DNA of 46,029 bases, taken from the NCBI GenBank assembly GCA_044336815.1, contig JBIIOU010000003.1:1-46029 (forward strand). The letters run 5' to 3'. Positions 1 to 22,611 of the stretch are shown in pieces. Each line of letters opens with the position of its first letter. Position 1 is the first letter of the stretch. The notes below the pieces were generated by a model. It was not told where the DNA came from, ran no database searches, and was given only the letters and a program-made list of their open reading frames with translations. Source of the DNA: Candidatus Nanopelagicales bacterium (GTDB taxonomy: Bacteria; Actinomycetota; Actinomycetes; S36-B12). The position numbers and the translations under genes were made by a program.

Positions 1-753
1 AGATTCATAAACTCCAAAATGCGCGAAGTTGATGGTGGATCCGCAACAATCTCATTGGGCGAGACCGCTGAACGAGTCGCTGCGATTGATGGCATTACTC
101 GTTCAGAAAGTGACGAGTACGCAATGAGGTCACACCTGTTAGCCGCAAAAGCAGTTGAGGCCGGCCTGCTCGCAGCCGACATAATGCCCGTTGAGTCCGC
201 AAACGGACCGGTATCGGTCGACGAAGGTCCCAGGCCTGAAACCACCCTCGAAAGGTTGGCCCGCCTGAAGCCAGTGTTTTCGGAAAACGGAATAGTTACT
301 GCTGCTTCGTCATCACCACTTTCAGATGGTGCGGCAGCGGTCGTGGTGGCTTCGGGCCAAGCGGTACGCGAGCTGGGCCTTAAGCCCCGAGCGAGGATTG
401 TTGGCACCGCTAGCGCTGGAGTTCAACCATCACTAATGGGCCTTGGCCCGGTGCCGGCGACCCAAAAATTACTTGACAGGCACGCCATGTCTATCAGTGA
501 TCTCGATGCAGTTGAAATTAACGAAGCTTTTGCGCCGCAAGTTATCGCCTGCGCGCGGAGGCTTAACATCGATGAATCAATTCTCAACGCATGGGGTGGG
601 GCAATCGCGCTTGGTCACCCGCTTGGTGCTTCTGGCGCGCGCTTGGCGTTGACCATGGCAAGGCGCCTTGAAGACGGAGACTTAAACCGTGGGCTCATTA
701 GTTTATGTGTCGGGGTCGGTCAAGGAACATCAATGATTTTGGAGCGGGTGTGA
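1..753 (+). CDS. Acetyl-CoA C-acyltransferase (thiolase), 5'-truncated by the window edge
   Basis: NEAF, GGAIALGHPLGASG and CVGVGQG thiolase motifs. The frame is open to base 1 (RFINSK before the annotated Met), so the gene starts upstream. Confidence 0.95.
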   Translation, partial: RFINSKMREVDGGSATISLGETAERVAAIDGITRSESDEYAMRSHLLAAKAVEAGLLAADIMPVESANGPVSVDEGPRPETTLERLARLKPVFSENGIVTAASSSPLSDGAAAVVVASGQAVRELGLKPRARIVGTASAGVQPSLMGLGPVPATQKLLDRHAMSISDLDAVEINEAFAPQVIACARRLNIDESILNAWGGAIALGHPLGASGARLALTMARRLEDGDLNRGLISLCVGVGQGTSMILERV

Positions 754-1934
754 GCTCGCCAGCAAACAGGCCACTTGAAGGCCTGCGGGTAGTCGAGCTC
801 GGGGCCCTAGTAGCCGCGCCTTTTTGCGGAATGTTGCTTGGGGATCTAGGCGCCGAGGTTATCAAGATAGAACCACCCGAAGGTGATATGGCGCGGGCTT
901 TTGCTCCCTTCGTAGAAGGCGAAAGTGCTTTCTTCATGTCAGTGAATCGTGGTAAACGCAGCGTCGCAATTGATGTCAAGGACCCAGAGGCCCTTTCATG
1001 GGTTCGGAAAATCGCAGCGTCAGCGGATGTAGTGATTCACAACTACCGAAGCGGGGTCGCCGAGCGGCTCGGCTTGGGATATGCGGACCTACAGAGTGAA
1101 AATCCAGGCTTGATCTATTGTGCGGTTTCCGGTTTCGGCCCGACCGGGCCGATGGCTAAGCGTCCGGGTATCGATCTGATATTCCAGGCGGAGTCCGGAA
1201 TGCTGGCAATCACCGGGACGCCCGATGGCCCTCCGGTAAAAGTCGGCACTAATGCCGCTGATGTCTATGCCGCTACCACGGCGGCCGCATGTATAAATGC
1301 GGCACTTGTGCGCCGCGGCATTACCGGGCTCGGTTGTCAGGTCGATGTTTCGCTGCGGGATGCGTTCCTATCGCTACAGGCCTGCTGGTTTGGCAGTTAC
1401 TTAGCAACGGGTATTCAACCAGCGCGGGTGGGTGCTGGCTCGCCCTTTACTGCACCAACCGATGTCTATCCAACCGCTGATGGGTACATCGTGTTGGCGG
1501 TCGTCAATGATAAGCACTGGCGGATTTTCTGTGAGACTCTTGGCTTAACTGACCTTGCCGAGGACTCGCGATTTGTCGATAACGAGTCCCGAGTTACTCA
1601 CGTTGAATTCCTACGGAAAATCGTTTCCGATTCCCTTGCTGCTCGCACCACCGCGGACTGGTTAAGTGCTTTTAAGAGTGCCCAGATCCCGGCCGGGGAA
1701 GTTATGGAATATGCAGACGTAGTTGCCGACGAACAGGTTCAACTAAATCAGATGGTGATTGAGTTTCAGCACGCTGGCGGATTTCCGGTTCGAACTCAGG
1801 GAGTACCGTTTTGGTTCGACGGAGTTAAAGCAGATCTTGTTGTGCCACCGCCGGCCCTGGGCCAACATACGATTGAAATTCTGCGCGAGATGGGCTGTAC
1901 TGAAGACGCAGCTCGGCGGCTGGCGAAACGGTGA
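750..1934 (+). CDS. CaiB/BaiF family III CoA-transferase
   Basis: PLEGLRVVEL, GAEVIKIEPP, NRGKRS and C-terminal PPALGQHT motifs. The GTG at 750 overlaps the thiolase stop (GTGA), with GGAG at 741. Confidence 0.93.
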   Translation: MSSPANRPLEGLRVVELGALVAAPFCGMLLGDLGAEVIKIEPPEGDMARAFAPFVEGESAFFMSVNRGKRSVAIDVKDPEALSWVRKIAASADVVIHNYRSGVAERLGLGYADLQSENPGLIYCAVSGFGPTGPMAKRPGIDLIFQAESGMLAITGTPDGPPVKVGTNAADVYAATTAAACINAALVRRGITGLGCQVDVSLRDAFLSLQACWFGSYLATGIQPARVGAGSPFTAPTDVYPTADGYIVLAVVNDKHWRIFCETLGLTDLAEDSRFVDNESRVTHVEFLRKIVSDSLAARTTADWLSAFKSAQIPAGEVMEYADVVADEQVQLNQMVIEFQHAGGFPVRTQGVPFWFDGVKADLVVPPPALGQHTIEILREMGCTEDAARRLAKR

Positions 1935-1948
1935 CTCAACTAGGAGTG

Positions 1949-2842
1949 CTACCCGACCTCGCGCTTGGTGTCTTCAATCCCGGGCCCCGAATGCAGTTGC
2001 TCGGGAGCACCGAGAACCTTGTTGTTCGATACATCAGTCAAGAACTCCAGCCCGGCGCCGAAGATGGATTCCATCTCGGGGCCAAGCTCGGAGTAGATTT
2101 TCTGGACGTAAATATCATGCCGAATAAAACTTCTGATGAGGCCGACCAACCTTTGATCCGAAGAAGCCAAGCCGCTCCAGTCGCTTCCGCCTACGGCCAA
2201 GGCCCACATAGAGTGCGCCCCGTCGGCAACCACCGCAAGATGGCGGTTCTGATGGTGCGGATACACCGCTTTCGAGGTGGACTTATGGCGGAAGACTTGC
2301 CCCTGGGTCAAAGTCAAATTAGTACGGCCGAATGCCATTGCAATGACTTCGACGCCGCGATCTTCAGCTCGAGCGATTTCCGCGCCAAGGTCTTCAAATT
2401 CGCTACCCCAAGCGGATATGTAAACCTTCGAAGTCGCCTGTGCAATAAGGCTGCGCACGTGATCCAGCAAAGCCGGGCGGCCACTTATGCTGTCCAAGAC
2501 TTCGGGCCAGGTGTGAACCTCTGGGGTCGCAATGATGGCCGCCGCAGCCGCACGCTCAGCGGCTTCAACTCGCTTTGTGTAGTCCAACGCCAGCCCACTA
2601 AGGAGAGCATCGGGGGGAGTCGCCGCAAACCGCTGCGGACTTTCACCCAACATAACTGCCGCACCACGAGCTTCCAGTTTTCGGATAGCTTCGTAAATTT
2701 TAGGTTGCGGCACGCCGGTGACTTTCGAAAGGCCGTACGCTGTTTGCCCGTAGTTACTAAGAAGCCCAACATAAATACGGGATTCGTATTGCGAGAAACC
2801 CAAATTGGCAAGGGCAGAGATCAAATCAGCGCCAGATTCCAC
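1949..2842 (-). CDS. TrmB-family transcriptional regulator
   Basis: N-terminal LGFSQYESRIY...GVPQPKIYE winged-HTH, followed by a PLD-like effector domain (QATSKVYISAW, LAVVADG). Confidence 0.9.
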   Translation of the reverse strand: MESGADLISALANLGFSQYESRIYVGLLSNYGQTAYGLSKVTGVPQPKIYEAIRKLEARGAAVMLGESPQRFAATPPDALLSGLALDYTKRVEAAERAAAAAIIATPEVHTWPEVLDSISGRPALLDHVRSLIAQATSKVYISAWGSEFEDLGAEIARAEDRGVEVIAMAFGRTNLTLTQGQVFRHKSTSKAVYPHHQNRHLAVVADGAHSMWALAVGGSDWSGLASSDQRLVGLIRSFIRHDIYVQKIYSELGPEMESIFGAGLEFLTDVSNNKVLGAPEQLHSGPGIEDTKREVG

Positions 2843-2973
2843 TTACCCACCGTCTTTCCACGTTCGACATATTCACTGGTTTTACAAGATCCGAATACCG
2901 AGTACCGAAGCAATACAACAGCAGCATAACCGCCCTGGCACAAAATTTCACCCATTTTATGGAGGCAAACACA

Positions 2974-3765
2974 ATGGAACGACTACTCGAAGACGTGACC
3001 TACTCCGTAGATCGCGGCCTCGCCTGGATCACGATCAACCGGCCCGACCGGATGAATGCATTTCGCGGACAGACGATCGACGAGCTCATCCACTGTTTCA
3101 AGGTTGCCTGGGGTGACCCAAATGTCGGGGTGGTGGCGTTGACGGGCTCCGGCGAGCGGGCTTTTTGCACCGGCGGGGATCAAAAGCAGCGCAAGGAGAC
3201 GGGTGACTACGGGCCAAACGATTACGGAATTTTCCAAGATGAGTACCTCCAACGGCTTATCCGCGATATCCCCAAGCCCGTGGTGGCAGCGGTAAACGGA
3301 TTCGCCATCGGTGGTGGGCAAGTGCTGCATGTGGTGTGTGACCTATCCATTGCGGCAGACCATGCGCAATTCGGCCAAGCTGGCCCCCGGGTGGGTTCAT
3401 ACGATGCCGGCTTCGGCACTGCCTATCTGGCCCGGATCATTGGTGCCCGAAGGGCCCGTGAGGTCTGGTTCCTCTGCCGGCGCTACAGCGCCCAAACAAT
3501 GCTCGAATGGGGTTTGGTTAACGCGGTGGTGCCCATGAGTGAGCTACATAATGAGGTGCGCAAATGGGCCGATGAAATGCTTGCCCTTAGCCCCACGGCA
3601 TTGAAGGTTATCAAGCACTCCTTTAATGCCGATTCTGAATCGATCGCTGGCATCTCGGCAATGGCCTTTGATGGGCTGGGGATTTTTGTCGGAACAGATG
3701 AGGCCCGCGAAGGTGTAGAGGCATTCAATGCCAAGCGGGCTCCGGACTTCGGAAAGTATCGATGA
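2974..3765 (+). CDS. Crotonase-fold C-C hydrolase of the MenB/BadI (2-ketocyclohexanecarboxyl-CoA hydrolase) group
   Basis: ITINRPDRMNAF, AFCTGGDQ, GFAIGGGQVL, FGQAGPRVGSYDAGFG and REVWFLCRRY motifs. GGAGG at 2961 supports the ATG at 2974. Confidence 0.88.
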   Translation: MERLLEDVTYSVDRGLAWITINRPDRMNAFRGQTIDELIHCFKVAWGDPNVGVVALTGSGERAFCTGGDQKQRKETGDYGPNDYGIFQDEYLQRLIRDIPKPVVAAVNGFAIGGGQVLHVVCDLSIAADHAQFGQAGPRVGSYDAGFGTAYLARIIGARRAREVWFLCRRYSAQTMLEWGLVNAVVPMSELHNEVRKWADEMLALSPTALKVIKHSFNADSESIAGISAMAFDGLGIFVGTDEAREGVEAFNAKRAPDFGKYR

Positions 3766-4607
3766 CACCTGACCTGTCTGTCACGGTGGTGGGCGCCGGA
3801 ACCATGGGTGTTGGGATCGCCTACGTATTTGCCCTCAATGGGGCCGAGGTTGAGATAGTTGAGCCAGACGCTGGGCGGCGTGACTCCGTGGCGGCGCAGG
3901 TAGAGCTGGTAACACAAGGGGGTGTTCGCCGCGGGTCACTTACCCCTGAGGCAGCCGGCCTACTAGCCCAGCGCATCACGACTTTCACTGATTTAGGGCA
4001 GACTAAATTTGCTCCACACCTGCTTATTGAGGCGGTGCCCGAGTCACTCGGCTTGAAACAAGAGGTACTAAGCGCAGCGGAGGGACAAAATCCGCGTTTG
4101 CTGGCAACGAACACCAGCAGCATCTCTATTGACTCAATCGCCGCCGGTTTGACCGACCCGTCAGCGTTAATAGGGATGCACTTCTTCAACCCGGTTTGGG
4201 TTAACCAACTGGTGGAAATCGTTGTCGGCGAGCGAACTAGGCCGGATGCGCCCAAGGAGGCCCTCGACCTGGTGGCTTTCATTCAAAAAGAAGGCATTAC
4301 CGTCCGCGATCGGCCTGGATTTGCCTCGAGCCGGCTAGGGGTGCTTTTGGGATTAGAGGCCATTCGAATGGTTGAAGAGGGGGTTGCCCCTGCAGCGGAT
4401 ATCGATCGGGCCATGGAAGTTGGGTATCGCCACCCCATGGGCCCGCTGAAACTAACCGACCTAGTTGGCCTTGATGTGCGGCTGGCAATTGCCGAAAATC
4501 TGTCAGCAACCCTTGGCCCGCGGTTCGAGCCCCCGGAGCTGCTGCGGTCGATGGTGCACGAAGGCAAACTCGGGAAGAAAACCGGCCAAGGCTTTTATCA
4601 GTGGTAG
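3762..4607 (+). CDS. 3-hydroxyacyl-CoA dehydrogenase
   Basis: VVGAGTMGVGIA Rossmann motif, plus IEAVPE, ATNTSS, GMHFFNP, HPMGP and LGKKTGQGFY. ATGA overlap with the previous gene. Confidence 0.95.
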   Translation: MTPDLSVTVVGAGTMGVGIAYVFALNGAEVEIVEPDAGRRDSVAAQVELVTQGGVRRGSLTPEAAGLLAQRITTFTDLGQTKFAPHLLIEAVPESLGLKQEVLSAAEGQNPRLLATNTSSISIDSIAAGLTDPSALIGMHFFNPVWVNQLVEIVVGERTRPDAPKEALDLVAFIQKEGITVRDRPGFASSRLGVLLGLEAIRMVEEGVAPAADIDRAMEVGYRHPMGPLKLTDLVGLDVRLAIAENLSATLGPRFEPPELLRSMVHEGKLGKKTGQGFYQW

Positions 4608-5732: not shown

Positions 5733-5758
5733 CACACCCGCTAGGCGAAGGAGACAAC

Positions 5759-6829
5759 ATGCGATTTGGATTTGGGCCACTGACTCTTGAGTCCCCCGTG
5801 GGCTGGCGTTGTGTCGGCTGCTCTCGGCCGCCGGATGGATCCTGCTGCGGCAAGAAGCAGGTAGATGTTTTTGAAGAAGGGCTCGAGCAAGCTGTCACGG
5901 CCGAATGGTGGGGTTTCGATTCAGTTTGGGCGGGTGAGGCCAACTTCAGCAAGGTGGGCTTTAACTCTTCCTCGCCAGTCGTGGCGGCCGGCATTGCGCA
6001 ACGAACCGAATTCGTACGAGTTGGAGTAATGCCGATACTCGGCCTGGTTAATGCTATTTATTTGGCCGAAGAAGTGGCGTGTATTGACAATATCGCCGCG
6101 GGCCGGACGATCGTGGCTGCTCAGGTGCCCTCTGCTGAAGTTGCACGCGGATGGGGTGGCTCTGACTCCGCAGAGCGCATCATCGATGACGTAGCAGTGC
6201 TCCGAAAGGCGTGGGGGCCAAATCCTTTTTCGCACAAGAGTGACTTTCACACCATCCCAATGGAAAACGAGATTCACGTCGAGGCGCGCGGTCTTGACAA
6301 AATCTCGATTCAACCAAAGCCAGCACAGTTAGAGATGCCGCTATGGCTTACCGGTGACGCTGCCGCGGCGAGCATTGCGCGTCAAGTTGGCGTGCCATAC
6401 CTCGGTGCGGCTCAACTAACCCTCGATGAGCTGCGGCCGTTGTACGAAGGTGTGGCCACCGACGGGAGCACGATTGTTCCGCTGTCGCGCGAGGTGTTTA
6501 TCGCGCCTACTACGGAGCGCGCGTACGAACTAGCCGCAAATGCCATTGCCGGGCTGTACGAAGCATTCCGGAGAGACGGCACGTATAGCGGGCCGAGTAA
6601 TTTTGATGACATGGTGAAAGATCGGTTTGTCATCGGAGACCCTGACACCTGCATCGAGCAGCTATACCGTTACCAAAATGAACTTGGCGTTAACTACGTT
6701 GTCGCTCGCCTTGCCTATCACGACATGCACCCGGGTGAGACAGCGAAGGCGATTCAACTATTTGGACAAGGTGTAGTTCCTGAATTCCGCATGTTTGGGA
6801 TGCCCGATGAGATCCGCAAGGTGGTATGA
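5759..6829 (+). CDS. Divergent LLM-family protein with an N-terminal Cys-rich insertion (beta-like partner)
   Basis: AEWWGFDSVWAGE, LAEEVACIDNIAAGR, QPKPAQ and IGDPDTCIEQL motifs. EHH is replaced by EAN. GAAGGAG RBS. Confidence 0.85.
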   Translation: MRFGFGPLTLESPVGWRCVGCSRPPDGSCCGKKQVDVFEEGLEQAVTAEWWGFDSVWAGEANFSKVGFNSSSPVVAAGIAQRTEFVRVGVMPILGLVNAIYLAEEVACIDNIAAGRTIVAAQVPSAEVARGWGGSDSAERIIDDVAVLRKAWGPNPFSHKSDFHTIPMENEIHVEARGLDKISIQPKPAQLEMPLWLTGDAAAASIARQVGVPYLGAAQLTLDELRPLYEGVATDGSTIVPLSREVFIAPTTERAYELAANAIAGLYEAFRRDGTYSGPSNFDDMVKDRFVIGDPDTCIEQLYRYQNELGVNYVVARLAYHDMHPGETAKAIQLFGQGVVPEFRMFGMPDEIRKVV

Positions 6830-8157
6830 GCTTGTCTGACGTTTTTGATTCAATTGAGGTTCAGCCCTGGTCAGAAGTTGCCGAACTCCACGAAGCTCTG
6901 CTCCAAGAGCAACTCGATTATGTGGTAGCAAGATCAGATTTCTACAAGGCCAAATTTGCCGGGCTGCGTTCATCAGTGAGCTCACTAGCCGACCTGGCAA
7001 ATTTGCCTTTTACTTCTAAGGACGAAATTCGCGAGAGCCTGTTGGCGCGGCCGCCACTTGGGCTCCATGTGGCCGCCGACCTAGGCGATGTCGTGCAGAT
7101 CCAATCCTCATCCGGCACTACCGGGATGCCAACTTTTGTGGCAGCCACCGCACAAGACATCGATACCTGGAATTCAATGGGTGCCCGGGTCTTTTACGCC
7201 AATGGGTTCCGCCCGAAAGACTGGGTAATGCACGCCTATGCAATGGGCCGCGGATTTGTTGGTGGTTTAGTAAATATCGAGCATCTGCAACATCTGGGAG
7301 TGTGTGTAATTCCGCTGGGGGCCGAGTCGGGTACCGAGCGGTTATTGGGCGCGATTGACCATTTAAAGCCGGTAGCAATGTGTGCGACTCCATCGATGGT
7401 TAGCCACCTCGGCTCAATGGCACCTGAAGTCCTCGGAAAACCGGCTCGCGAACTTTCGATCAGGAAGATCTCGGTGGGAGGCGAGCCAGGTGGAGGCATC
7501 CCTGCGATTCGACAGCAAATGGAAGAACTTTGGGGCGCGGATGTGCGCGACATGATGGGCGGTGCTGACTTTGGCAGTACCTACTGGGCTGAATGCGATG
7601 AAAAAGACGGGATGCATGTCTGCTCCCAAGGTGCTTTGCACGTTGAACTAATTGATCCAGACACTTTGGAGTCGCTACCAATTGCGGAAGGCGTTTCTGG
7701 GGAGCTTGTTTATACGACATTGCGCCGCCAAGCTACCCCTCTTATTAGGTATCGCATGGGTGACATAGTTACCGTGACTTCGATGGATTGCTCATGTGGC
7801 CGAACGGGCTACAAGATCAAAGCCCACGGGCGGGCCGACGACATGCTTATCGTTCGCGGGGTTAATGTCTTTCCTGCGGCCATCAAGGACGTAGTTATGC
7901 AGCTCGTTCCCGACACCACGGGTTACCTAAAGATTGATCTGGATTTCGCTGGGCATAGTACCTACGAACCCCTAAACATGCGCGTTGAGATTTCCAAGAC
8001 GAGCAAGAAATCGGCGCAGGATTTAGCCGTGCTGCTCGAGGGAGCAATTAGAGATAAATTGACGGTTAAAGTGGTGGTAAATATCGTGCCGGAGGGGGCC
8101 ATCGAACGGCCCGGGGCACAAAAAGAAAAGCTGCTAGAACGGGTGTCGAAAGCATGA
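6826..8157 (+). CDS. Phenylacetate-CoA ligase (PaaK)-family aryl/acyl-CoA ligase
   Basis: LPFTSKDEIR, SSSGTTGMP, GELVYTTL, PLIRYRMGD and GRADDMLIVRGVNVFP motifs. Confidence 0.92.
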   Translation: MSLSDVFDSIEVQPWSEVAELHEALLQEQLDYVVARSDFYKAKFAGLRSSVSSLADLANLPFTSKDEIRESLLARPPLGLHVAADLGDVVQIQSSSGTTGMPTFVAATAQDIDTWNSMGARVFYANGFRPKDWVMHAYAMGRGFVGGLVNIEHLQHLGVCVIPLGAESGTERLLGAIDHLKPVAMCATPSMVSHLGSMAPEVLGKPARELSIRKISVGGEPGGGIPAIRQQMEELWGADVRDMMGGADFGSTYWAECDEKDGMHVCSQGALHVELIDPDTLESLPIAEGVSGELVYTTLRRQATPLIRYRMGDIVTVTSMDCSCGRTGYKIKAHGRADDMLIVRGVNVFPAAIKDVVMQLVPDTTGYLKIDLDFAGHSTYEPLNMRVEISKTSKKSAQDLAVLLEGAIRDKLTVKVVVNIVPEGAIERPGAQKEKLLERVSKA

Positions 8158-8338: not shown

Positions 8339-9865
8339 GTGAACGTTCTTGAAGTTTCCGGGCTCCACAAATATTACGGTGACTCGGTAGCCCTTGATAA
8401 TGCTGGTATCAGCGTCGGGGCCGGGGTGATTCACGCCATTGTTGGTGAAAACGGTGCGGGTAAATCCACCATGGTGAAAGTTCTTTCCGGCATGGTCACG
8501 CCAGATTCTGGTGAGGTAAAAATTGATGGCAGCGTGCTCGAGCTGGGTGTGCCAAAAGCATCAAGGAGCGCGGGGGTCTTCACCGCGTTCCAAGAGCTAT
8601 CACTGCTACCGAACCTGACGGTTGCCGAAAACTTGCTTATCGCCGAACTCCCAACACGCGCGGGAGTTGTTAGCCGTCGCGCGGTTCAAGGGCAGGCAGC
8701 AAAAATTTTGAAAGAGTGGGGGGTTAATGACCTTGACCCTGGGCTCATGGTCGGTCAACTACCACTGAGTGCCAAGCAGCGACTCGAATTAGTTCGAACA
8801 CTTTCACATAACCCCAAAATCCTTATTTTAGACGAGCCAACCGCAGCGCTACCCGATACTGATTGGCTGTTCCGACATGTCCGCGCGGCCCGCGATAGGG
8901 GCGCGTGTGTTTTGTATATCTCACACAAGCTAGCCGAAATCGGCCAACTGTGTGAAAGCGGCACCATCATGCGAAACGGAAAAATCGTAGGAGATTTTAA
9001 TCCCACAAACTTTAGCCACGATGAAATCATTTCATCAATGATCGGGCGATCGATCAGCATGGCATTCCCACCAAGGGTCAGCGCTATTCCCGCCGATGCC
9101 CCAATACTTCTGAAAGCGATTGATTTCGAGGTTGGCAACCGGGTGCGAGGTGTCGATCTACAAGTCCGCGAGGGTGAAATTGTCGGTGTTGCCGGCCTCG
9201 AAGGCCAAGGGCAGCGCGAACTCTTCTACGGCCTAGCAGGTGCCTCGCCGGTAACAGGTGGCGTTGTTGAGGTAGCGGGAACTGCGACAAAAGTCTCCAA
9301 TCCGCGCAAAGCCCTGAAGGCGGGTCCTGGTATCGCACTTGTCCCTGAAGAGCGAAAGCGTGAGGGGATTTTTGCCGACCTAACCTCGGTCACGAATATC
9401 TCTGTGCCTGCCTTGAAGAAACTATCCTTTGCAGGAATCATTCGTCGCGGCCCTGAGCGCGAAATGGCCTTGGAGGCCGGGCGTGATGCCCATATGCCAG
9501 AGGAGTACTTAGGTCGTGATGTCGGGCGGCTGTCGGGCGGAAATCAGCAAAAGTCAGTGCTGGCGCGCACAAACTTGACCGGCGCCAAGATTTTGCTGAT
9601 GTTTGACCCGACAAGAGGTATCGACCCATCGGCAAAGCTTGAGGTTTACAGCACGCTCCGTACGTCGGCGGCAAATGGCGCGGCAGTTTTGTTTTACTCA
9701 ACAGAGATCCCGGAGTTAGTCGGGCTTTGTGATCGGGTGATCGTTATGTACCACGGGAGAGCCGTTGCCGAGTTCGAAGGTGAACGAATTACTGAAGACG
9801 CAATCATGCAAGCCGCCGTGGGTCACGCCTCTTCGGCAACTGCTGCTCAAGGGGATAAGTCATGA
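8339..9865 (+). CDS. Sugar-type (CUT2) ABC transporter ATP-binding protein
   Basis: GENGAGKST, LILDEPT and a second domain with LSGGNQQK. Tandem ABC domains. Confidence 0.95.
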   Translation: MNVLEVSGLHKYYGDSVALDNAGISVGAGVIHAIVGENGAGKSTMVKVLSGMVTPDSGEVKIDGSVLELGVPKASRSAGVFTAFQELSLLPNLTVAENLLIAELPTRAGVVSRRAVQGQAAKILKEWGVNDLDPGLMVGQLPLSAKQRLELVRTLSHNPKILILDEPTAALPDTDWLFRHVRAARDRGACVLYISHKLAEIGQLCESGTIMRNGKIVGDFNPTNFSHDEIISSMIGRSISMAFPPRVSAIPADAPILLKAIDFEVGNRVRGVDLQVREGEIVGVAGLEGQGQRELFYGLAGASPVTGGVVEVAGTATKVSNPRKALKAGPGIALVPEERKREGIFADLTSVTNISVPALKKLSFAGIIRRGPEREMALEAGRDAHMPEEYLGRDVGRLSGGNQQKSVLARTNLTGAKILLMFDPTRGIDPSAKLEVYSTLRTSAANGAAVLFYSTEIPELVGLCDRVIVMYHGRAVAEFEGERITEDAIMQAAVGHASSATAAQGDKS

Positions 9866-10884
9866 ATACTAATCCCGGCCGAATCCGGCAGATTCTGACA
9901 GACGGCACCGGGCGTGCGGTTTTCTTCTGGATCATTTTGATGGCGATCTGGTTATCGCTCCAAAGCCGTCAGGGCATGGGCCTAGATTTAGGGCAGATTC
10001 AGTCATATCTGGTGTTGTCTCTGCCACTAATCGTCGCGGCGATTGGGGTTACCTTAGTAATTATCATGGGGCAGTTCGACCTCTCGGCTGCCGGTGTTAT
10101 CGGGATAGTTAACGTGACTATCGCCTCAACATTGAGTAGTTGGAACCCACTTCTGGTAGTGGTGTTAATGATGGCACTGGGCGGTTTTATCGGCTTGGTG
10201 AACGGACTTTTCGTTATCCTTGGCAAGCTGCCAGCGATTGCGGTAACCCTAGCTACCCTCATCATTTTGCAGGGGCTAGCTGTTGTCATCCTCCCGCAGC
10301 CAAGTGGGAAAATACCGCCGTTCCTTGTTGACGGTGTGCGAGTGCCATTTGTCGCGCTCGGCATCATCGTCGTAGTTATCATCGTTTGGATGCTCTTCAA
10401 GCGGTCTCGTTTGGGCCTCTACATGTTTGCCATCGGAGCTGACCCTGAGGCGCTGCATCTTTCGGGTCTGCCGGTCAAGAAGATCCAACTTAAGATCTTC
10501 GTACTTGCCGGGGCGCTGTACGGCCTTGCGGGTGTCTTTATGTCAGCTTCGCTTGGATCAGGTGACGGCAATGCAGCGGACAGTTTCCTCCTAACGACTT
10601 TCGCGGCCGCAGCAATTGGAGGTACCGCCTTTGTCGGCGGGCGAGGTTCAGCAGTTGGCACCCTTTTCGGAGCGTTAACTCTTCTCGCGATTCCCAAAGT
10701 GCTCTTTGTCATCGGCGTCAGCGACTGGACCCAGAAAGTTGCTTTCGGCCTATTGGTCCTGCTAGCGGTTGTTGCTGGAGCATTCTCATCCCTGAGAAAA
10801 GACCGCGAGCTCTTACTGGTAGCCCCGTACTCAACTCCCACCGAGGGTGAATCTAGCACCGCGACCAAGGGAGGCAGCGCATGA
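9862..10884 (+). CDS. Sugar-type ABC transporter permease
   Basis: Multi-TM protein with GQFDLS, AAAAIGGT and GGRGS motifs of the RbsC family. Confidence 0.93.
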   Translation: MNTNPGRIRQILTDGTGRAVFFWIILMAIWLSLQSRQGMGLDLGQIQSYLVLSLPLIVAAIGVTLVIIMGQFDLSAAGVIGIVNVTIASTLSSWNPLLVVVLMMALGGFIGLVNGLFVILGKLPAIAVTLATLIILQGLAVVILPQPSGKIPPFLVDGVRVPFVALGIIVVVIIVWMLFKRSRLGLYMFAIGADPEALHLSGLPVKKIQLKIFVLAGALYGLAGVFMSASLGSGDGNAADSFLLTTFAAAAIGGTAFVGGRGSAVGTLFGALTLLAIPKVLFVIGVSDWTQKVAFGLLVLLAVVAGAFSSLRKDRELLLVAPYSTPTEGESSTATKGGSA

Positions 10885-11915
10885 GCGATCAATTAGTAAT
10901 CCAAGCGCAGCAACGCCGAAGCTCAAGGATGCAAACCATCTACCGCCCACTCATCCTGGCCGCTCTTGCGCTATTGGTGCTGGTCTCCGGTCGGCTTGTC
11001 AGCGAGTCGCTTCCATCTTTGATCGCCGTTCAGACTGTGCTTACGCTCGGCATGTTCCTGTCGGTGGTTGCCTTCGGTCAGGGCTTGGTCATGCTTACCG
11101 GCGGCCTCGACCTTTCAGTCCCCGGTGTGATCGCACTCTCGGCGAGCATTGTCGCGGTGTGGGTCAGCTTCATGGACGGCAACCTTTTGGTCGGAATCCT
11201 GCTGGCGCTGGGGGTTTCACTTCTCTTCGGAATAGTCAATGGATTACTTGTATCCGTCCTGAAAGCACCGGCATTTATTGTGACCCTTGCCATGGGGGCA
11301 GTTCTCGAAGGGTTCTCACTCTTTATCACTTATGGCCGCAAGTCCCCGGAGTCACCTGAATTGCTGGTCACACTCTTCAGCGGATCCGGGAAACTTTTTG
11401 GTATTGCTATTCCGGCCCTGCTTTTCTTCGTTGTCGGAATTATTGGTTTCATCATTCAGGCCAGGTCGCGCTTCGGACGCAATGCCTACCTGCTCGGTAG
11501 TTCATTAGAGGCATCGCGAATCGCGGGCCAGCCGGTTAATTTCATTCAGATCAGTATGTACGCGGTCAGCGGGTTCGGGTCTGGTCTGGCTGGTTTGATG
11601 CTTGTTGGTTTTTCAGGTAACGCCCAACTCAGCCTTGGTACAGAATGGCTAATGCCTTCAATCGCCGCGGTCCTCGTGGGCGGTACGGTAATTGGTAGCG
11701 GACGCGGCTTTTGGCAGAGCACCATAACTGCCGGGTTAATGCTGACCGCTATCACCATCGTGATTCAGTCGACCGGCGTCCCCCAGGGCTGGAAATCAGT
11801 TCTTTACGGAGTCGTCGTCCTGGTCGCATTACTTTCCACTAGGTCGGACATCGGACGGCGTAGAAGGAAGCAAATTTCCCAATCTCCACTCCAGGGAAAT
11901 CCACCGCAAAAGTGA
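10881..11915 (+). CDS. Sugar-type ABC transporter permease
   Basis: Multi-TM protein with GGLDLSV, PAFIVTL and SIAAVLVGGT motifs. Confidence 0.93.
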   Translation: MSDQLVIQAQQRRSSRMQTIYRPLILAALALLVLVSGRLVSESLPSLIAVQTVLTLGMFLSVVAFGQGLVMLTGGLDLSVPGVIALSASIVAVWVSFMDGNLLVGILLALGVSLLFGIVNGLLVSVLKAPAFIVTLAMGAVLEGFSLFITYGRKSPESPELLVTLFSGSGKLFGIAIPALLFFVVGIIGFIIQARSRFGRNAYLLGSSLEASRIAGQPVNFIQISMYAVSGFGSGLAGLMLVGFSGNAQLSLGTEWLMPSIAAVLVGGTVIGSGRGFWQSTITAGLMLTAITIVIQSTGVPQGWKSVLYGVVVLVALLSTRSDIGRRRRKQISQSPLQGNPPQK

Positions 11916-11932
11916 GAAACGAAAGGATCCGA

Positions 11933-13300
11933 ATGAAGAGAAATTGGAAAGTGGCGGCGCTAGCTGTTGTAGCAGCCGGCACGCTTGCACTGAGCGCCTG
12001 TGGCGGCTCAACCAGTAGCACCGCTGACGCAGGTGCTGCAAGTGCAGCAGCAACAGAGGCTGCAGCACCCGCTGCAACTGCCGCGGCATCCGAGGCTGCA
12101 GCTGACAATGGCAATCCCTGCGGTTGGGCTGCTGCTCCTCGCGCTGGTGGAGCTAAGTACGTCGTGTACATGTCTTCACTCAATATCGGTAACGCGTGGC
12201 AGGAAGAAGCCGTCAACCTTGGTTCAGCCGAGGCCCTGATGTCTCCATATAGCGACTGCGTTGAACTTCGCACAGAGCGCACCGAGCCAGATCCCGCATC
12301 TCAGATCTCGCAGATTCAGTCAATGACTGCAGCAGGCGCTGACGCGATCGTGACGTTTGCACTGTCCCCGACAGCAATTAACGCCACCTTCAAAGAAGCT
12401 TGCGATGCAGGCGTGACCGTCGTAATCTACGACGCGACCGTTACGGAGCCATGTGCATACAACGTCTCCTACATCACTGCAAAGCCAGTTGGTTCTGACA
12501 TTCCATTCATGGGATACAACGCCATGGCGGCTCTGATTGACATGCTGGGTGGCGCGCCGTCCGACATCTTCGTCGCCCACGGCGTGGCCGGCACCTCGGT
12601 CGACAACGTCCACTACCTGTCGGCACTTGCTGCCTTGGAGCAGTTGTCTCCTGACACGAATATCCTGACCGAATGGGATGGTAACTGGGATAGTGCTCAG
12701 CAGCAGAAGGAAACCACAAAGGCACTTGCATCCTTCCCAGACGTAGCCGGTATCTTCTGCGGTTACGGTGAGTCGGGCTGCGTAAAGGCCCTCAAGGCAG
12801 CTGACAAGACAATCCCAGTCACCGGTGAGACCTCGCAGTACTTCCGCGAGCAGCTTCTCGCTGGCTGGCCAGGCGTCAGCATTGGCTCACCGCCAGCACA
12901 GGGTGGCATTGCAATGAAGGTTGCACTGGGCGTACTTGAGTTCGGTCCAGATGCAGGTATCCCGCATGACATTGAGGTCCCCTTCAAGGTAGTCACGAAG
13001 GACACCGTCATGGTCTGTGAAGAAGACACCTACACCGAAGGCTGCAACGTCTTCCCAGCAGGCGTCGTCGGTGACGAGAACACGGCAGATATCTTCAACC
13101 CACTTCTGCCAGAAGCCTCACTCACCTCGGCCAAGACGGGCGTGCCACCAGCAGGTTTGGTAGCAGTTCCGTTCACGGTTGATGAGCTCAAGGCAATCGA
13201 GCAGGATCCATCACGCCGCTACATTACGCGTGAGGCCTGCCCAGAAGGCTGGGCACAGGGCAAGCTAGCTGAGGGTCTTGACGGCTGCGTGCAGTCGTAA
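11933..13300 (+). CDS. Sugar-type ABC substrate-binding lipoprotein
   Basis: MKRNWK start after GAAAGGA, lipobox LSAC, an Ala-rich tether and a periplasmic-binding-protein-like body (GNAWQ, QISQIQSM, GADAIV). Confidence 0.9.
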   Translation: MKRNWKVAALAVVAAGTLALSACGGSTSSTADAGAASAAATEAAAPAATAAASEAAADNGNPCGWAAAPRAGGAKYVVYMSSLNIGNAWQEEAVNLGSAEALMSPYSDCVELRTERTEPDPASQISQIQSMTAAGADAIVTFALSPTAINATFKEACDAGVTVVIYDATVTEPCAYNVSYITAKPVGSDIPFMGYNAMAALIDMLGGAPSDIFVAHGVAGTSVDNVHYLSALAALEQLSPDTNILTEWDGNWDSAQQQKETTKALASFPDVAGIFCGYGESGCVKALKAADKTIPVTGETSQYFREQLLAGWPGVSIGSPPAQGGIAMKVALGVLEFGPDAGIPHDIEVPFKVVTKDTVMVCEEDTYTEGCNVFPAGVVGDENTADIFNPLLPEASLTSAKTGVPPAGLVAVPFTVDELKAIEQDPSRRYITREACPEGWAQGKLAEGLDGCVQS

Positions 13301-16434: not shown

Positions 16435-16482
16435 CATATCCCTTGATCTAATTTGTCTGCCCTAGATGAAAGTGAGCAAGCC

Positions 16483-17241
16483 GTGGCTACCCAAAAGATT
16501 GACATCAATGCTGACGCAGGTGAGAGTTTTGGCCGCTGGGTACTCGGATCAGATTCCGATGTCCTCCCTTGGGTGACAACAGTTAACATCGCATGCGGCT
16601 TTCACGCGGGGGATCCAGCCAATATGCGCAAGTCTGTGCAGTTAGCTCGGGAATTAGGGATAAATGTTGGAGCCCACCCTGGTTACCCAGACCTCTGGGG
16701 TTTTGGGCGCCGGGCGATGGCCCTAAGCGATGAGTCGGTTCTCGATTACGTTACCTACCAAACCGGGGCCCTACTGGGAATCGCCAATGCTGAGGGGGTG
16801 CGGATGACCCATATGAAACCCCATGGATCCCTTTACGGGCACATAGCAAGGTCGCCCGAATTGGCCCTGGCGCTAAGCCGCGAACTGCAAAATATTCAGC
16901 CGGGGCTCACGCTGCTGACTTCGCCATTTGCCGGTGGCAAGGCGGTTAGGGCAGCTGGCTTACCGGTGATCTTTGACGCTCCGGCCGACCTCGACTTTGA
17001 GGAAGATGGCACCCATGTAATTGAGCCAATACCCCAAGCAAAAGATCCAGTTAAGGTTGCTGATCGAGCCGTGCAGTTGGCTACCGGGAAGGTCACTTCA
17101 GTGACCGGCGTAATCATTGACATGCCAACCGAATCTATTTGCGTTCACGGCGATCGCCCAAACGCCCCTGAGGTAGCCAAGGCCGTTCATGAAAGATTAA
17201 TCGCAGAGGGCTATGTCATTTCATCAGCTTTTACCCGCTAA
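16483..17241 (+). CDS. pxpA: LamB/YcsF family protein (5-oxoprolinase subunit A-like), paralogue 1
   Basis: DINADAGESFG, NIACGFHAGDP, GAHPGYPD, HMKPHG and ICVHGD motifs. Start is uncertain (16453 or 16483). Confidence 0.88.
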   Translation: MATQKIDINADAGESFGRWVLGSDSDVLPWVTTVNIACGFHAGDPANMRKSVQLARELGINVGAHPGYPDLWGFGRRAMALSDESVLDYVTYQTGALLGIANAEGVRMTHMKPHGSLYGHIARSPELALALSRELQNIQPGLTLLTSPFAGGKAVRAAGLPVIFDAPADLDFEEDGTHVIEPIPQAKDPVKVADRAVQLATGKVTSVTGVIIDMPTESICVHGDRPNAPEVAKAVHERLIAEGYVISSAFTR

Positions 17242-17286: not shown

Positions 17287-18318
17287 TTGAAGTTCGGTCT
17301 CTCATTTAGCGTCGTGGTTCCACCTGATGGTCCATTGAGTTGGTCGCAGGTTGCACAGGACATGGTGCGTTTGGCTCCCGAAGTTGAGGCATTGGGTTTT
17401 GACTCGTTACACGTTCTCGAGCACCATTTTCAAAAAGATGGCTGGAACCCATCACCACTTCTCACCTTGGCTGCGGTTTCTGCGGTTACTACGACCTTGG
17501 AATTGACAACCGACATTTTGGTGGCAACTTTATATAACCCGGTGAAATTGGCCGAGGACACCGCGGTGCTGGATAACCTTTCCAATGGGCGCTTAACCCT
17601 AGGAGTAGCACCCGGGTATGTGAGCGAGGAATTCGCTGGGCTGATGGTCCCATTTGAGACCAGAGTGCGCCGGTTTGAAGAGTGCATGGACATTATTCAA
17701 GCTGCCTGGAGCCAAGACGAGTTTAGCTATGACGGTGAATTCTTCAAGATCCCGCCGACCTCTTTGATGCCGCGTCCACTACAAACTCCGCACCCACCAA
17801 TTTGGTACGGCGTATCAGGGCCGAAGATGCTCAAAAAGGCGGCTGAAAGAAATGCGCTGTTTGTTGGTTCTCCGCGCCACACCGTCCCGGAGCTCAAGGA
17901 GCACGTCAGTGCATATCGGTTGGCATGCGATGCGGTTGGTTTTAAGCCCTCGGGTCTTCCCATCGGCCGCGGGTTATTCATTGCCCCTTCAAGGCAGGAA
18001 GCAATTGACATTGCTGGCCCTGCCGTTACCCACCTATTTCGCGAGCTCTACGCCAGAAAGTCTGCGGAAGGCGCCCGGGAGTTGCGGTCCGATGATGGGA
18101 CTTTAATAGTTGACAGCAGTAGCGTCGATTTCGAAACTTTCCAAGAGCGTTACATAATCGGCACTCCTGATGATGCCATTGCGCGCATACAGCAACTGCG
18201 CGATGAGGTTGGCATGACAGAACTCGTCGCGTGGACTCAGCTCCCGGGTATTTCTGGGGAGCAGGCTATTGCATCCGCGCGGCTATTAGCGAAGCATGTA
18301 ATTCCTGAATTCAGGTGA
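17287..18318 (+). CDS. LLM-class flavin-dependent oxidoreductase
   Basis: GFDSLHVLEHHF, LDNLSNGRLTLG and PRPLQTPHPPIW motifs. AGGAGG RBS before the TTG. Confidence 0.92.
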   Translation: MKFGLSFSVVVPPDGPLSWSQVAQDMVRLAPEVEALGFDSLHVLEHHFQKDGWNPSPLLTLAAVSAVTTTLELTTDILVATLYNPVKLAEDTAVLDNLSNGRLTLGVAPGYVSEEFAGLMVPFETRVRRFEECMDIIQAAWSQDEFSYDGEFFKIPPTSLMPRPLQTPHPPIWYGVSGPKMLKKAAERNALFVGSPRHTVPELKEHVSAYRLACDAVGFKPSGLPIGRGLFIAPSRQEAIDIAGPAVTHLFRELYARKSAEGARELRSDDGTLIVDSSSVDFETFQERYIIGTPDDAIARIQQLRDEVGMTELVAWTQLPGISGEQAIASARLLAKHVIPEFR

Positions 18319-18378
18319 AAGTTCGGAAGATAAGTGATGAAATTGCCTACAGTTGAGCGGTCGTAGCCAGGCCCCCGG

Positions 18379-19317
18379 ATGAATGGACAAGAACCAATGA
18401 GCGCACGAATAGCAGGCCCAGTACACGTAGCAATGATGAATCTTCTCTGGCCACGGCGTGGGCTGCCCGTGCAGAACTTCTATGACTACTGGGTAGGCGC
18501 GCACACGCAGATTTCCTCTAGATTGCCGGGGATACATCAGTACTTCCAGCACCAACTGGATCCAGTAGCCGGCAGATCGTATCCGCGGTCAATGCAGTTG
18601 AGCCGAGGTAGCGAAGTAATCCCTGGTTTCTACGGAGATGCTGAGATAACTTTCACGACGGAGCAGGATCTAAAACGTTTCGCCGACAGCCTGGCCCCGC
18701 TAATGGCTGACGAACAAAATGTCTTCGAGAAGACCATCTCTTATCAAGCGACGAAAGAAAATGTTTGCACTTTGAAAGATGAGAGTGTTGACGATTCTCC
18801 AAATGGGGATTTGGGTGAAGCCGAGAAGTACCTGCTGTATTTGAAGTGTGACCCAAGTGTTGCTATTTCGGAATTCAGAAGAGTGATCAGCGAAGATGTT
18901 GCCCCCGCGTTGGCGGCGTCAGCGGACGTTTCTAAAGTAAGAATTAGGCTTCTTGAATTCTATGATAATGAAAAGGTAACTTTGCTGGCGCCAAATGTGT
19001 CAAATTACGAAGACGCGAAAGATCAGTATCAGGGATGCATCGAAATCGTGTTCACAAATGCTTTTGCGCGACGACGGTTTGGCGAATCTGAAACTAGCAC
19101 TGCTACGGCCGACAAACTGCTTGCAGTCTGCAGTGAAATAGACATAATGCGGGCGCTGAAAACTTTCACCGTCTACAACCATGGGTCTATCACAACGGCT
19201 GGGCTGCGTAGCCCGCAGATGGCTGACCAAATAAAAGCAATAGGTGCGATAAATCAGATAGATAAGTCAGTTAGGGACCTAATTTTGAGGGAGCACACTC
19301 ACTTTTCGGTCAAGTAA
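18379..19317 (+). CDS. EthD-like dimeric alpha/beta-barrel protein (two repeats)
   Basis: RRGLPVQNFYDYW..AH...PGIHQYFQH and DEQNVF EthD pattern. The second half resembles a degenerate repeat. Alternative start at 18397. Confidence 0.7.
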   Translation: MNGQEPMSARIAGPVHVAMMNLLWPRRGLPVQNFYDYWVGAHTQISSRLPGIHQYFQHQLDPVAGRSYPRSMQLSRGSEVIPGFYGDAEITFTTEQDLKRFADSLAPLMADEQNVFEKTISYQATKENVCTLKDESVDDSPNGDLGEAEKYLLYLKCDPSVAISEFRRVISEDVAPALAASADVSKVRIRLLEFYDNEKVTLLAPNVSNYEDAKDQYQGCIEIVFTNAFARRRFGESETSTATADKLLAVCSEIDIMRALKTFTVYNHGSITTAGLRSPQMADQIKAIGAINQIDKSVRDLILREHTHFSVK

Positions 19318-20534
19318 CTAAGGGCATCGGCATCGCCGAACCCGCCGGATCTCATCAGGATGCTAACTCCTTGAAAACTTTCGAGTCCAAGCACCTTGCT
19401 TACTGCTCCGCCTTTAAGTGAGCTTTCCTGCACCAAGATTGCATCAATACCAGCACTCGCGCAGAAGGCTTGGGCAAGGTCTCCACCAAGTATCACCGCC
19501 AGCAGTGGCACTCGTGGGCTAGCGCACACTGTTTGTAGACAATTCGCCAGCAGGTTAACAATTTCGGCGGCTTGCAGGCGTCGCTGTTTAATATCAGGAT
19601 CTAAAATTGCGCTTGACTCAATTGCCACGAGGCAAGAGTCTCCTTCAGCAAAAGCGGTTTGTATAGACTCACAAAGCGTACTTGCCGCCGGCAAATCATC
19701 AGGGTCAACCCGGATACTTCTCGATTTATTAACATGAGCGGAAAAATATTTAAGTTGGTCTTTAACCTCTTTGCGACGGCTGGCTGTGATAATCAAAAGA
19801 TTCGTGAAAATCAAGGGCGCTGCAACTTGCGGCAGAGCTGGAATGTCAGTGAGAATTCCAGAGCTTCCGATCAAGGCGACTTGGGGCAAATTTAGAGCGG
19901 CTCTTCGCAAGCGAACCATGTCGTCTTCTGTCGCGGCATCGGCGATAACTACCGCACCACGAGTGCTCAAACGCTGCAGGTGTTCGGCTAGCGATGGATC
20001 TCTGACCTGCTCCAATTCCAGTTGGTGGATTGGGCGTTCGCCAGATATGAAGGACTTTAACTCACTATCGAGGGCAGGAGCCAGTGGGTCAGCGGAGGCC
20101 TGAGATTCTGTTATCAACTGGCTTCCGTGGTACTGGTGGCCGCCTGCTGTTACGCGCCCTTGGTTTGGTAGCGCAGGTGCGAACAGGAATGAGCAGCCGG
20201 CAGTTGTTGCTTCAGACATGAAAGCGTCTAACTCGCTGCTGAGGTTACCGCGCATTAGGCTGTCGACCTTCTTCATCAGCCTAAAACCGTTGATTAGCGC
20301 CCAGCCGGTGGCAAGGCTCACTCGGTTCGCCGCCGTGTTCGCGTCAATATTTCTACTGTCCGTAGATATACATAGGAGATCAGGTGCGTGATTCGCTAAT
20401 ACTTGATCCCAGCGTTGTACGGGCTCAATGCTCCAGGGAATGACAAGGCAGTTGGCCGCTGGATTAAATGCTCGATATGCGGCCGCTGAATCAACGGCGC
20501 CCGTTAAATCATCAGCAACAATGGCCAGCCGCAT
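19299..20534 (-). CDS. Four-carbon acid sugar kinase (DUF1537; DtnK/DenK-like)
   Basis: MRLAIVADDLTGA, STDSR, KKVDSLMRGN, PALPNQGR, GGD and SGGFG motifs. GAAGGA RBS before the ATG at 20534. Confidence 0.88.
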   Translation of the reverse strand: MRLAIVADDLTGAVDSAAAYRAFNPAANCLVIPWSIEPVQRWDQVLANHAPDLLCISTDSRNIDANTAANRVSLATGWALINGFRLMKKVDSLMRGNLSSELDAFMSEATTAGCSFLFAPALPNQGRVTAGGHQYHGSQLITESQASADPLAPALDSELKSFISGERPIHQLELEQVRDPSLAEHLQRLSTRGAVVIADAATEDDMVRLRRAALNLPQVALIGSSGILTDIPALPQVAAPLIFTNLLIITASRRKEVKDQLKYFSAHVNKSRSIRVDPDDLPAASTLCESIQTAFAEGDSCLVAIESSAILDPDIKQRRLQAAEIVNLLANCLQTVCASPRVPLLAVILGGDLAQAFCASAGIDAILVQESSLKGGAVSKVLGLESFQGVSILMRSGGFGDADALSYLTEK

Positions 20535-20645
20535 AGTCGTCCTTCGCATCATTGGGGCTCGATACCTCAGCGTACCCGTGTATTCATTTAGTCCCATTTG
20601 CGCGGCTATACTCAGGGCATCCCTGAATTCGAGAAAGGCAACCCT

Positions 20646-21668
20646 TTGCAAAATTTCATTCCGAGAATTGGCATTACCCTTGGTGACCCAGCCGGTATCG
20701 GAACTGAAATCGCAGTGCGAACCCTCGAGGACAACTCGATTTATCAGCTTTGTCACCCGATACTTTTCGGCTCACCCGATGTGGTTGCTAGGGAGTTAAA
20801 GCAACTGGGCTCAAATTCAACCCTGAAGGTTGTTTCGCCGATGGATGAGGTTTCCAGCTCAGCAACTGAGGTTTTGGTGGTGGAGACCTCTGGCGCCGAG
20901 GCCCTCGTACCTTACGGACAGATCTCCGAGGCAGGCGGCGAAGCAGCGGTCAAGTCAATAAAAGCTGCTGTCACTGCGGCCCTAGCCGGCGAGATAGATG
21001 CGATAACGACCGCGCCGTTGAACAAAGAGTCGATGAGAAACGCTGGGTTTCATTACGACGGGCACACTGAGTTGCTCGCCGAACTAACCGGGTGTTCCTC
21101 GGTGAGCATGCTGCTGATCGGCAATCAACTTCGAGTAGCTCACTTGACTACGCATTCAGCGCTTAGAACCGTCTCCGATAAAATTACCGAGGAGAGATTA
21201 CGCGAGGTGATCCGAATCGCATTCGAAGCCATGCGCAATTATGGATTCGAGAGCCCAAGAGTCGCGGTGGCTGGCATCAACCCACATTGCGGGGAAAACG
21301 GCCTATTCGGTGACGAGGAAATAAAATTGATGCGTCCGGTAATTGAAAGCATCGCGGCCACCGGAATTGACGTACGAGGCCCTATTTCACCGGATGCGGT
21401 ATTTATAGAGGCCATGGCAGATAAGCATGACATCGTGGTTGTTGCCTACCATGATCAAGGCCACATACCGGTTAAGTTGATTGAGCGCGACCACGCGGTT
21501 AACGTCTCCGGCGGGCTCCCTATTATTCGAACCTCGGTTGATCACGGAACGGCCTTCGATATTGCAGGAAAAGGCATAGCGGATATCGTCAATATGAAAG
21601 CCGCAATTACGATGGCGGCCAAGATGGCGGTCGGCCGAGAGGCCGCGGGCAGGGCCAAATCTGCCTAG
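20646..21668 (+). CDS. pdxA: PdxA-family dehydrogenase (4-phospho-tetronate / 4-hydroxythreonine-4-phosphate)
   Basis: GDPAGIGTE, TAPLNK, GHTE, NPHCGE, YHDQGH and RTSVDHGTAFDIAG motifs. Next to a DUF1537 kinase, which suggests the PdxA2 type. Confidence 0.93.
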   Translation: MQNFIPRIGITLGDPAGIGTEIAVRTLEDNSIYQLCHPILFGSPDVVARELKQLGSNSTLKVVSPMDEVSSSATEVLVVETSGAEALVPYGQISEAGGEAAVKSIKAAVTAALAGEIDAITTAPLNKESMRNAGFHYDGHTELLAELTGCSSVSMLLIGNQLRVAHLTTHSALRTVSDKITEERLREVIRIAFEAMRNYGFESPRVAVAGINPHCGENGLFGDEEIKLMRPVIESIAATGIDVRGPISPDAVFIEAMADKHDIVVVAYHDQGHIPVKLIERDHAVNVSGGLPIIRTSVDHGTAFDIAGKGIADIVNMKAAITMAAKMAVGREAAGRAKSA

Positions 21669-22572: not shown

Positions 22573-22611
22573 GTAGCTATTTAGTCCCGCATTACTATCC
22601 AAGGAGCGACT

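Follow-up and report, generated by a model that had tools for sequence, protein, structure and literature searches.

Luciferase-like (LLM) enzymes are normally metal-free. In bacterial luciferase, two paralogous members of this fold, LuxA and LuxB, form a heterodimer of a catalytic and a non-catalytic subunit, and to our knowledge neither has a loop with four cysteines of the kind considered below. The FMN-dependent LLM enzymes MupA/Atu3671, PuwE OX and RslO1 act on thioester-bound substrates, and we know of no description of carrier-thioester-acting LLM proteins as alpha/beta pairs. Searches of the open-access literature for heterodimeric LLM proteins other than luciferase with a non-catalytic subunit, for metal-binding LLM proteins and for a catabolic island of the type described here found none in each case.

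Here, a stretch of 46,029 nucleotides from a Candidatus Nanopelagicales bacterium (contig JBIIOU010000003.1; the window) was analysed, in which two adjacent genes encode LLM proteins, referred to as alpha and beta (Table 1), both scoring above the 27.9-bit cut-off of the PF00296 (Bac_luciferase) profile. The original prediction was that beta carries the pattern C-x2-C-x7-C-C in the loop after its first strand, that it has lost the EHH and glycine-rich motifs which the adjacent paralogue keeps, and that the two proteins form a heterodimer in which beta binds zinc or an Fe-S cluster. The DNA at 5810-5848 reads C18-V-G-C21-x7-C29-C30, an exact match to the predicted pattern, and in an AF2 model of beta, derived from a 53-sequence alignment (mean pLDDT 86.5, pTM 0.86), the motif lies in coil between a strand (residues 2-8) and a helix (residues 34-50), as had been supposed. 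The modelled protein adopts a (beta/alpha)8 barrel like that of solved LLM structures. When it was submitted to Foldseek the top match was LuxA (1brl_A, TM 0.75-0.78), and matches with E values of ∼1e-17 and TM scores of 0.73-0.82 included 1brl_A, 7bip_A (RslO1), 8cbb (Enhygromyxa LuxA) and 2i7g. A wrongly assigned start codon for beta was ruled out, since the MRFG(L/F)GP N-terminus is conserved in homologues, as was a secreted, disulfide-bonded form of the protein, since its N-terminus forms strand 1 of the modelled barrel and there is no signal peptide.

Table 1. Features of the alpha/beta locus and of the surrounding island. Positions are those of the window unless another locus is named.
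Feature	Position	Strand	Basis
Thiolase (5' end cut by the window edge), family III CoA-transferase and family-less conserved protein (1931-2929)	19-2929	+	
BadI/MenB-like crotonase	2959-3765	+	Profile scores; syntenic in related loci
3-Hydroxyacyl-CoA dehydrogenase	3762-4607	+	Profile matches; syntenic in related loci
LLM alpha, conserved, presumed catalytic subunit, 348 aa	4686-5732	+	PF00296, 176 bits
Shine-Dalgarno-like GAAGGAGA, 4 nt before the beta start	5747-5754	+	Sequence reading
LLM beta, presumed non-catalytic partner subunit, 356 aa	5759-6829	+	PF00296, 94.2 bits
15-residue insertion W16-C30 bearing four Cys	5804-5848	+	Alignment of 52 assessable rows
Cys codons C18, C21, C29, C30	5810-5812, 5819-5821, 5843-5845, 5846-5848	+	DNA reading
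E60-A61-N62, aligned with EHH of alpha	5936-5944	+	Alignment with alpha
G115-R116 kept, then TIVAAQVPSAE instead of alpha LQLGLGLGYRD	6101-6139	+	Alpha/beta alignment
PaaK-like acyl-CoA ligase	6826-8157	+	AMP-binding and AMP-binding_C_2; PaaK models 219-241 bits, below cut-offs
ABC importer: double ATPase, two permeases, Peripla_BP_4 binding protein	8339-13300	+	Syntenic in L002-L006
Alpha2-beta2 pair	L014:369-2148 (source genome G000, contig C82); L001:715-2786; L003:16-1645; L004:7-1654		

With respect to the motifs, beta has E60-A61-N62 where the upstream paralogue has E50-H51-H52, and its glycine-rich segment is degenerate (GRTIVAAQVPSAE versus GRLQLGLGLGYRD upstream); the predicted retention of both the EHH and the GLGLGY-block segment in the upstream gene was confirmed by reading its sequence. 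The loss of EHH is therefore real in the window protein, but it is not a trait peculiar to it, as the site varies throughout the beta family. Across 53 aligned betas the first position is always E, the second is R in 30, H in 8, E in 6, A in 4 and another residue in 5, and the third is H in 25, N in 17, Y in 10 and P in 1, with an intact EHH in six. This variability looks like relaxed constraint at the site rather than a special loss in the window protein.

A joint alignment of alpha and beta sequences contains 43 columns whose conservation among 51 alpha-type sequences is 96% or higher, and E50, H51, H52, G111, G115, Y116, R117, E120 and F121 are invariant in all 51 aligned relatives of alpha. 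Sixteen of the 43 columns are kept in at least 90% of the beta rows and a further 5 in 79-89%, the remaining 22 being replaced or variable; those changed in beta include T49, H51, H52, H88, G111, G115, Y116, R117, E120, F121, R131 and R188. Beta thus keeps the fold with catalytic residues unconserved, in the manner of LuxB, and a catalytic column set that is invariant in alpha and variable in beta is, as judged from these alignments, a LuxA/LuxB-like asymmetry. Divergence of the two genes is likewise unequal, with identities to the window proteins in loci L001-L008 of 79-85% for alpha and 60-69% for beta, and dN against the same loci of 0.12-0.17 for alpha and 0.23-0.31 for beta, i.e. an approximately 2-fold higher non-synonymous rate in beta. 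Beta is nonetheless under purifying selection (dN/dS 0.018 for L005 versus L008) and has invariant motifs of its own (QPKPAQ, PEFRM and AEWWGFDS). Alpha is ∼14 residues longer than beta around alpha residues 258-294, at a sequence position near that of the LuxA mobile loop, which a preprint places at residues 259-283 and describes as characteristic of alpha and not of beta subunits.

The organisation of the genes points the same way. Alpha lies directly before beta in all eight loci with at least 1 kb of sequence upstream of beta (L001-L006, L008 and L011); alpha is cut at the contig edge in L007, and L009, L010 and L012 were left out of this count. In the window the two genes are separated by 26 nt, and the beta stop overlaps the start of the next gene, for the PaaK-like ligase, as ATGA. 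At the level of the genes, order and spacing are as in a LuxB-type subunit that adjoins, and is probably co-transcribed with, its catalytic paralogue. A second LLM pair, alpha2 and beta2, which are 41% and 33-36% identical to alpha and beta, respectively, is found upstream of the thiolase in L001, L003 and L004; in the source genome it lies at the end of contig C82, which probably joins the left edge of the window. The alpha-then-beta order is identical in L017, L018 and the second pair of L014. Since alpha2 pairs with alpha and beta2 with beta, the alpha/beta split predates the duplication of the pair. Taken together, the conserved adjacency, the tight spacing, the asymmetry of conserved columns and the faster non-synonymous change in beta provide good, if indirect, support for alpha and beta forming a LuxAB-like catalytic/non-catalytic heterodimer. 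A comparison of four alphas with Cys4-bearing partners and 15 without revealed no alpha residue that tracks the presence of the loop, hence there is no sign of the loop touching alpha.

The distribution of the insertion was examined by a word-indexed search of 5.8 billion proteins, which returned 61 matches; 52 of these were aligned together with the window protein to give 53 rows, the fragments P0036, P0037 and P0045, the short P0056 and the distant P0057-P0061 (at most 26% identity) being left out. Since P0027 is cut at its N-terminus, 52 rows could be assessed for the insertion. It is present with all four cysteines in 11 of the 53 rows (the window protein and 10 homologue clusters), is shortened and lacks all four in one (P0022), and is absent from 40, including that of cultured Microcella alkalica (L001). 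The expectation that the cysteines would be conserved in homologues is accordingly upheld among the rows that have the insertion, 11 of 12 of which keep all four, but not across the family, as 40 of 52 rows are without the insertion altogether. Four of the ten homologue clusters are near-identical to one another, so independent lineages number only about six or seven. A 13-row alignment of the Cys4 clade shows G15, W16, R17, C18, G20, C21, P24, C29, C30 and G31 to be invariant, which amounts to 10 of the 17 positions from G15 to G31. At the DNA level, the window has an x7 spacer where the other loci have x6, C29 is encoded by either TGC or TGT, and synonymous divergence of the window from the other Cys4 lineages has reached saturation. 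Elsewhere the motif was not encountered: it occurs in the first 60 residues of none of the 149 other representatives among the nearest 50%-cluster representatives listed by HMMER, with the exception of a 163-aa fragment of the window protein itself, and a word search with beta residues 1-60 only gave eight candidates and nothing new. Because 40 of the 52 assessable rows are without it, the Cys4 insertion is, on the alignment, best described as a derived, lineage-specific accessory that is not part of the core enzyme, and its apparent gain is limited to a few freshwater actinobacterial lineages.

In a beta tree built without the insertion columns, the Cys4 rows form two well-supported clades, one of 3 rows and one of 9 rows in which P0022 is nested, and these lie in an unresolved fork with two insertion-less clades. 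A tree constrained to unite all 12 rows that have the insertion is worse by 0.48 log-likelihood units (AU p 0.44), thus a single gain of the insertion is not rejected. P0022 sits within its Cys4 clade with a fork support of 100, on a branch two to four times the length of those of its sisters, indicating that all four cysteines were lost secondarily and at once, and the island and alpha partner of P0022 are intact despite this loss. Three positions outside the insertion, G78, I172 and P325 (5990-5992, 6272-6274 and 6731-6733), are found in 11 of 11 Cys4 rows; any one of them is shared by no more than 2 of 21 close relatives without the insertion, and P0022 shows reversions at positions 78 and 172. 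Small as these numbers are, the joint loss in P0022 and the co-varying outside positions suggest that the four cysteines may act as one unit packed against the barrel.

As to what that unit might be, the loop itself is modelled with a pLDDT of 52-58, falling below 50 at residues 16-21. The loop peptide gave no significant match to PDB sequences (best E ∼6) or to Pfam (best E 0.02, an unrelated viral family); the faint local resemblance to the first zinc knuckle in the PHD finger of TAF3 (E ∼6) serves as a lead only. We take the W-R-C-x-G-C start of the motif to be the aromatic-x-C-x2-C knuckle of the rubredoxin/zinc-ribbon type. Of the two C-x2-C knuckles of such sites only the first (C18-x2-C21) is present, the second being replaced by the vicinal C29-C30, an arrangement that is uncommon among Zn(Cys4) sites. 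The C-x2-C-x6/7-C-C spacing matches no ferredoxin, radical-SAM, Rieske or CDGSH signature that we know of. With the loop absent from 40 of 52 rows, it is evidently not needed for the basic reaction, and a cysteine site confined to certain lineages argues against an indispensable catalytic or electron-transferring Fe-S cluster and makes a metal site with a structural or regulatory role more likely. It is plausible that the loop holds a metal, most likely zinc in a Zn(Cys)4 knuckle with a structural role; a mononuclear site of this kind is preferred over an Fe-S cluster because the island works without the loop in most lineages and because the loop is carried by the degenerate subunit.

These observations can be accommodated by a scheme, which we regard as evenly poised between right and wrong, of a LuxAB-like pair encoded in a CoA island, with a beta sub-lineage that has acquired an inserted, probably zinc-binding Cys4 loop. 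The two genes would encode the subunits of a LuxAB-like heterodimeric luciferase-like oxidoreductase, in which alpha would bear the active site and beta would be a scaffolding pseudo-enzyme. In one beta sub-lineage, to which the source genome belongs, the 15-residue loop W16-C30 would have been inserted between strand 1 and helix 1, and its four cysteines would together bind one metal ion, probably zinc, in a rubredoxin-knuckle-like manner, the bound metal stiffening the new loop. The active sites of LLM proteins lie on the barrel face of the strand 1-helix 1 loop. The motif, its conservation within a restricted clade, the asymmetry of alpha and beta and the synteny are observed directly; the heterodimer, the metal and its identity, and the chemistry of the pathway are those parts of the scheme that we infer.

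Alternatively, the loop may bind no metal at all, with its cysteines serving as a thiol/disulfide switch that alters the conformation of the loop, for example in sensing peroxide from uncoupled flavin turnover. Both CxxC and vicinal CC pairs are capable of forming redox-active disulfides, H2O2 can be a by-product of LLM monooxygenases, and the lack of a fixed loop fold in the AF2 model would suit such a switch. We nevertheless consider it unlikely, as the simultaneous loss of four cysteines in P0022 fits a single shared site better than two pairs, and the conserved Gly, Pro and Trp around the cysteines suggest a fixed knuckle geometry.

It is similarly improbable that beta is an enzyme of different chemistry acting sequentially with alpha, with a Cys loop that is catalytic towards a CoA thioester. 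The strong purifying selection on beta and its invariant motifs would be in keeping with an enzyme, as would the handling of thioesters by the island and the retained G115-R116, at the position of the flavin-phosphate arginine of LuxA. Against this, beta orthologues vary in, or have lost, the EHH and GxGxGYR blocks, most of them have no Cys loop, and alpha/beta and alpha2/beta2 were duplicated as pairs.

A redox-active iron site, either a rubredoxin-like Fe(Cys)4 or a small Fe-S cluster that passes electrons to the flavin or senses redox state, has to be judged very unlikely, despite the four clustered and conserved cysteines and the fact that knuckles of this type bind iron as well as zinc. 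The absence of a flavin reductase gene among the window ORFs scanned, together with the location of the sole PF01613 (flavin reductase) match of the genome on another contig, would accord with a built-in centre of this sort. However, the same island functions without the loop in 40 of 52 assessable rows, the loop sits on the subunit with degenerate catalytic columns, P0022 has an intact island and alpha partner with none of the four cysteines, and the cysteine spacing, as noted above, is that of no Fe-S signature we know of. Finally, there is only a slim chance that the insertion is a functionless, neutral lineage marker whose cysteines persist by shared ancestry alone, since, notwithstanding its narrow distribution, the possible single origin of the two Cys4 clades and its loss in P0022 without visible harm, 10 of the 17 positions are invariant at saturated synonymous divergence, and cysteines make up just 125 of 12,661 residues (0.99%) in 34 proteins of the window, of which beta is the sole one with more than two per 13-residue stretch, against a chance expectation of ∼0.08 such stretches across all 34.

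The metabolic context of these proteins can be read from the neighbouring genes. The order of the island is alpha2-beta2, thiolase, CoA-transferase, the 1931-2929 gene, crotonase, dehydrogenase, alpha, beta, ligase and ABC importer; no acyl-CoA dehydrogenase or second hydratase is present among the island ORFs. The 332-aa product of the 1931-2929 gene (+ strand), which is found at the same place in L002-L006 with 22-30% identity, has no family match in Pfam, the PDB or the Atlas. The gene content suggests that the island is probably for CoA-dependent carboxylic acid catabolism, in which an imported carboxylic acid would be ligated to CoA and the resultant thioester hydroxylated by the LLM enzyme, with subsequent oxidation to a beta-keto thioester, hydrolytic ring opening (retro-Claisen) and thiolysis. 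With regard to the cofactor of alpha, the nearest sequence of known structure is the LuxA-type luciferase 8cbb (E 3.7e-33), and its best PDB matches are FMN enzymes; its best NCBIfam match is the F420-type TIGR03619, at 147.6 bits and below the cut-off of 166.9, and the source genome encodes CofD.

Loci related to that in the window come from Microbacteriaceae, Acidimicrobiales, Nanopelagicales-type MAGs and a single proteobacterial MAG. With 18 clusters at E ≤ 1e-30 in a HMMER search of 1.84 billion cluster representatives, the beta family is a small one, and the island is rare: beta was found in three of 301 sampled genomes of the order, the source genome included, in none of six genomes of the same genus, and in the source genome only among 401 sampled genomes of the class. 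One MAG labelled Bifidobacterium breve (L007 and L010) carries an island that is 66% (beta) to 83% (alpha) identical to that of the window, and as these loci resemble those of MAGs from aquatic actinobacteria, either the label or the binning seems questionable.

The remainder of the window contains several further gene sets. A third, stand-alone LLM gene (PF00296, 178 bits) at 17287-19317 (+ strand) is followed by one for an EthD-domain protein, a homologue of which adjoins alpha2 in L001. Two SBD_N/NBD_C kinases and a PdxA-like dehydrogenase (19299-21668 and 27663-29129) recall, from their domains, the catabolism of four-carbon acid sugars of the threonate/erythronate type. Two LamB/YcsF genes are found at 16453-17241 and within 21832-26074, the second being followed by genes for a biotin carboxylase and for CT_C_D and CT_A_B carboxyltransferase-domain proteins, a set that is 5-oxoprolinase- or allophanate-hydrolase-like as annotated by domain. 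Lastly, the region 39380-44339 (+ strand), which encodes a protein with a Pvc16 N-terminal domain, then an AAA ATPase with a winged-helix domain and a protein weakly matching fibronectin type III, resembles a portion of a contractile injection system.

Should a metal be bound by beta, the luciferase-like fold would, so far as the open-access literature goes, have its first described built-in metal site, and a pseudo-enzyme subunit would be seen to have acquired a new module; if the site proved to hold iron, it would represent a built-in point of electron entry or redox sensor in lineages without a flavin reductase gene in the island. Close orthologues of beta include forms that carry the loop, forms that lack it and forms that carry it without the cysteines, so that its role is open to side-by-side comparison; a cultured strain, Microcella alkalica (L001), supplies one of the loop-less forms. 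The pair also belongs to an uncharacterised catabolic island of aquatic Actinobacteria with two LLM pairs.

In comparison with known systems, the arrangement is closest in outline to LuxA/LuxB, there being two adjacent paralogous genes for LLM TIM-barrel proteins, of which alpha keeps the catalytic residues, and is longer near the sequence position of the LuxA mobile loop, and beta is degenerate. LuxA and LuxB chains are matched by alpha at E ∼1e-18, and LuxB (1xkj) ranks 34th in the Foldseek list for the beta model. Unlike true luciferase subunits, however, alpha scores just 84-85 bits on both NCBIfam luciferase models (cut-offs of 600 for alpha and 500 for beta), and beta scores 23.6 bits on the luciferase alpha model only, with no match to the LuxB family NF052255 (cut-off 500 bits), on which alpha reaches 85 bits; moreover, the pair sits in a CoA-thioester catabolic island as opposed to a lux operon. 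Judged by these profiles, the pair is an independent, analogous alpha/beta split and not orthologous to LuxA/LuxB. The next-best relatives of alpha are thioester-acting enzymes, namely the MupA/Atu3671 family (TIGR04020, 116 bits, below cut-off), the PuwE OX domain (6ket, E 1.3e-25) and RslO1 (7bip, E 1.3e-23), which fits an acyl-CoA substrate here. The Cys4 loop resembles rubredoxins and zinc ribbons in its aromatic-x-C-x2-C first knuckle, its nearby Gly and Pro residues and the occurrence of four cysteines within 13 residues, and differs from them in its second half, a vicinal CC in place of C-x2-C, and in having no confident fold. The island as a whole is reminiscent of the bad/ali pathway for alicyclic acids, with a crotonase that scores 329 bits on the BadI and 343 bits on the MenB models and with a CoA ligase and a hydroxyacyl-CoA dehydrogenase, but it departs from that pathway in that all these scores lie below the equivalog cut-offs and in the presence of two LLM pairs.
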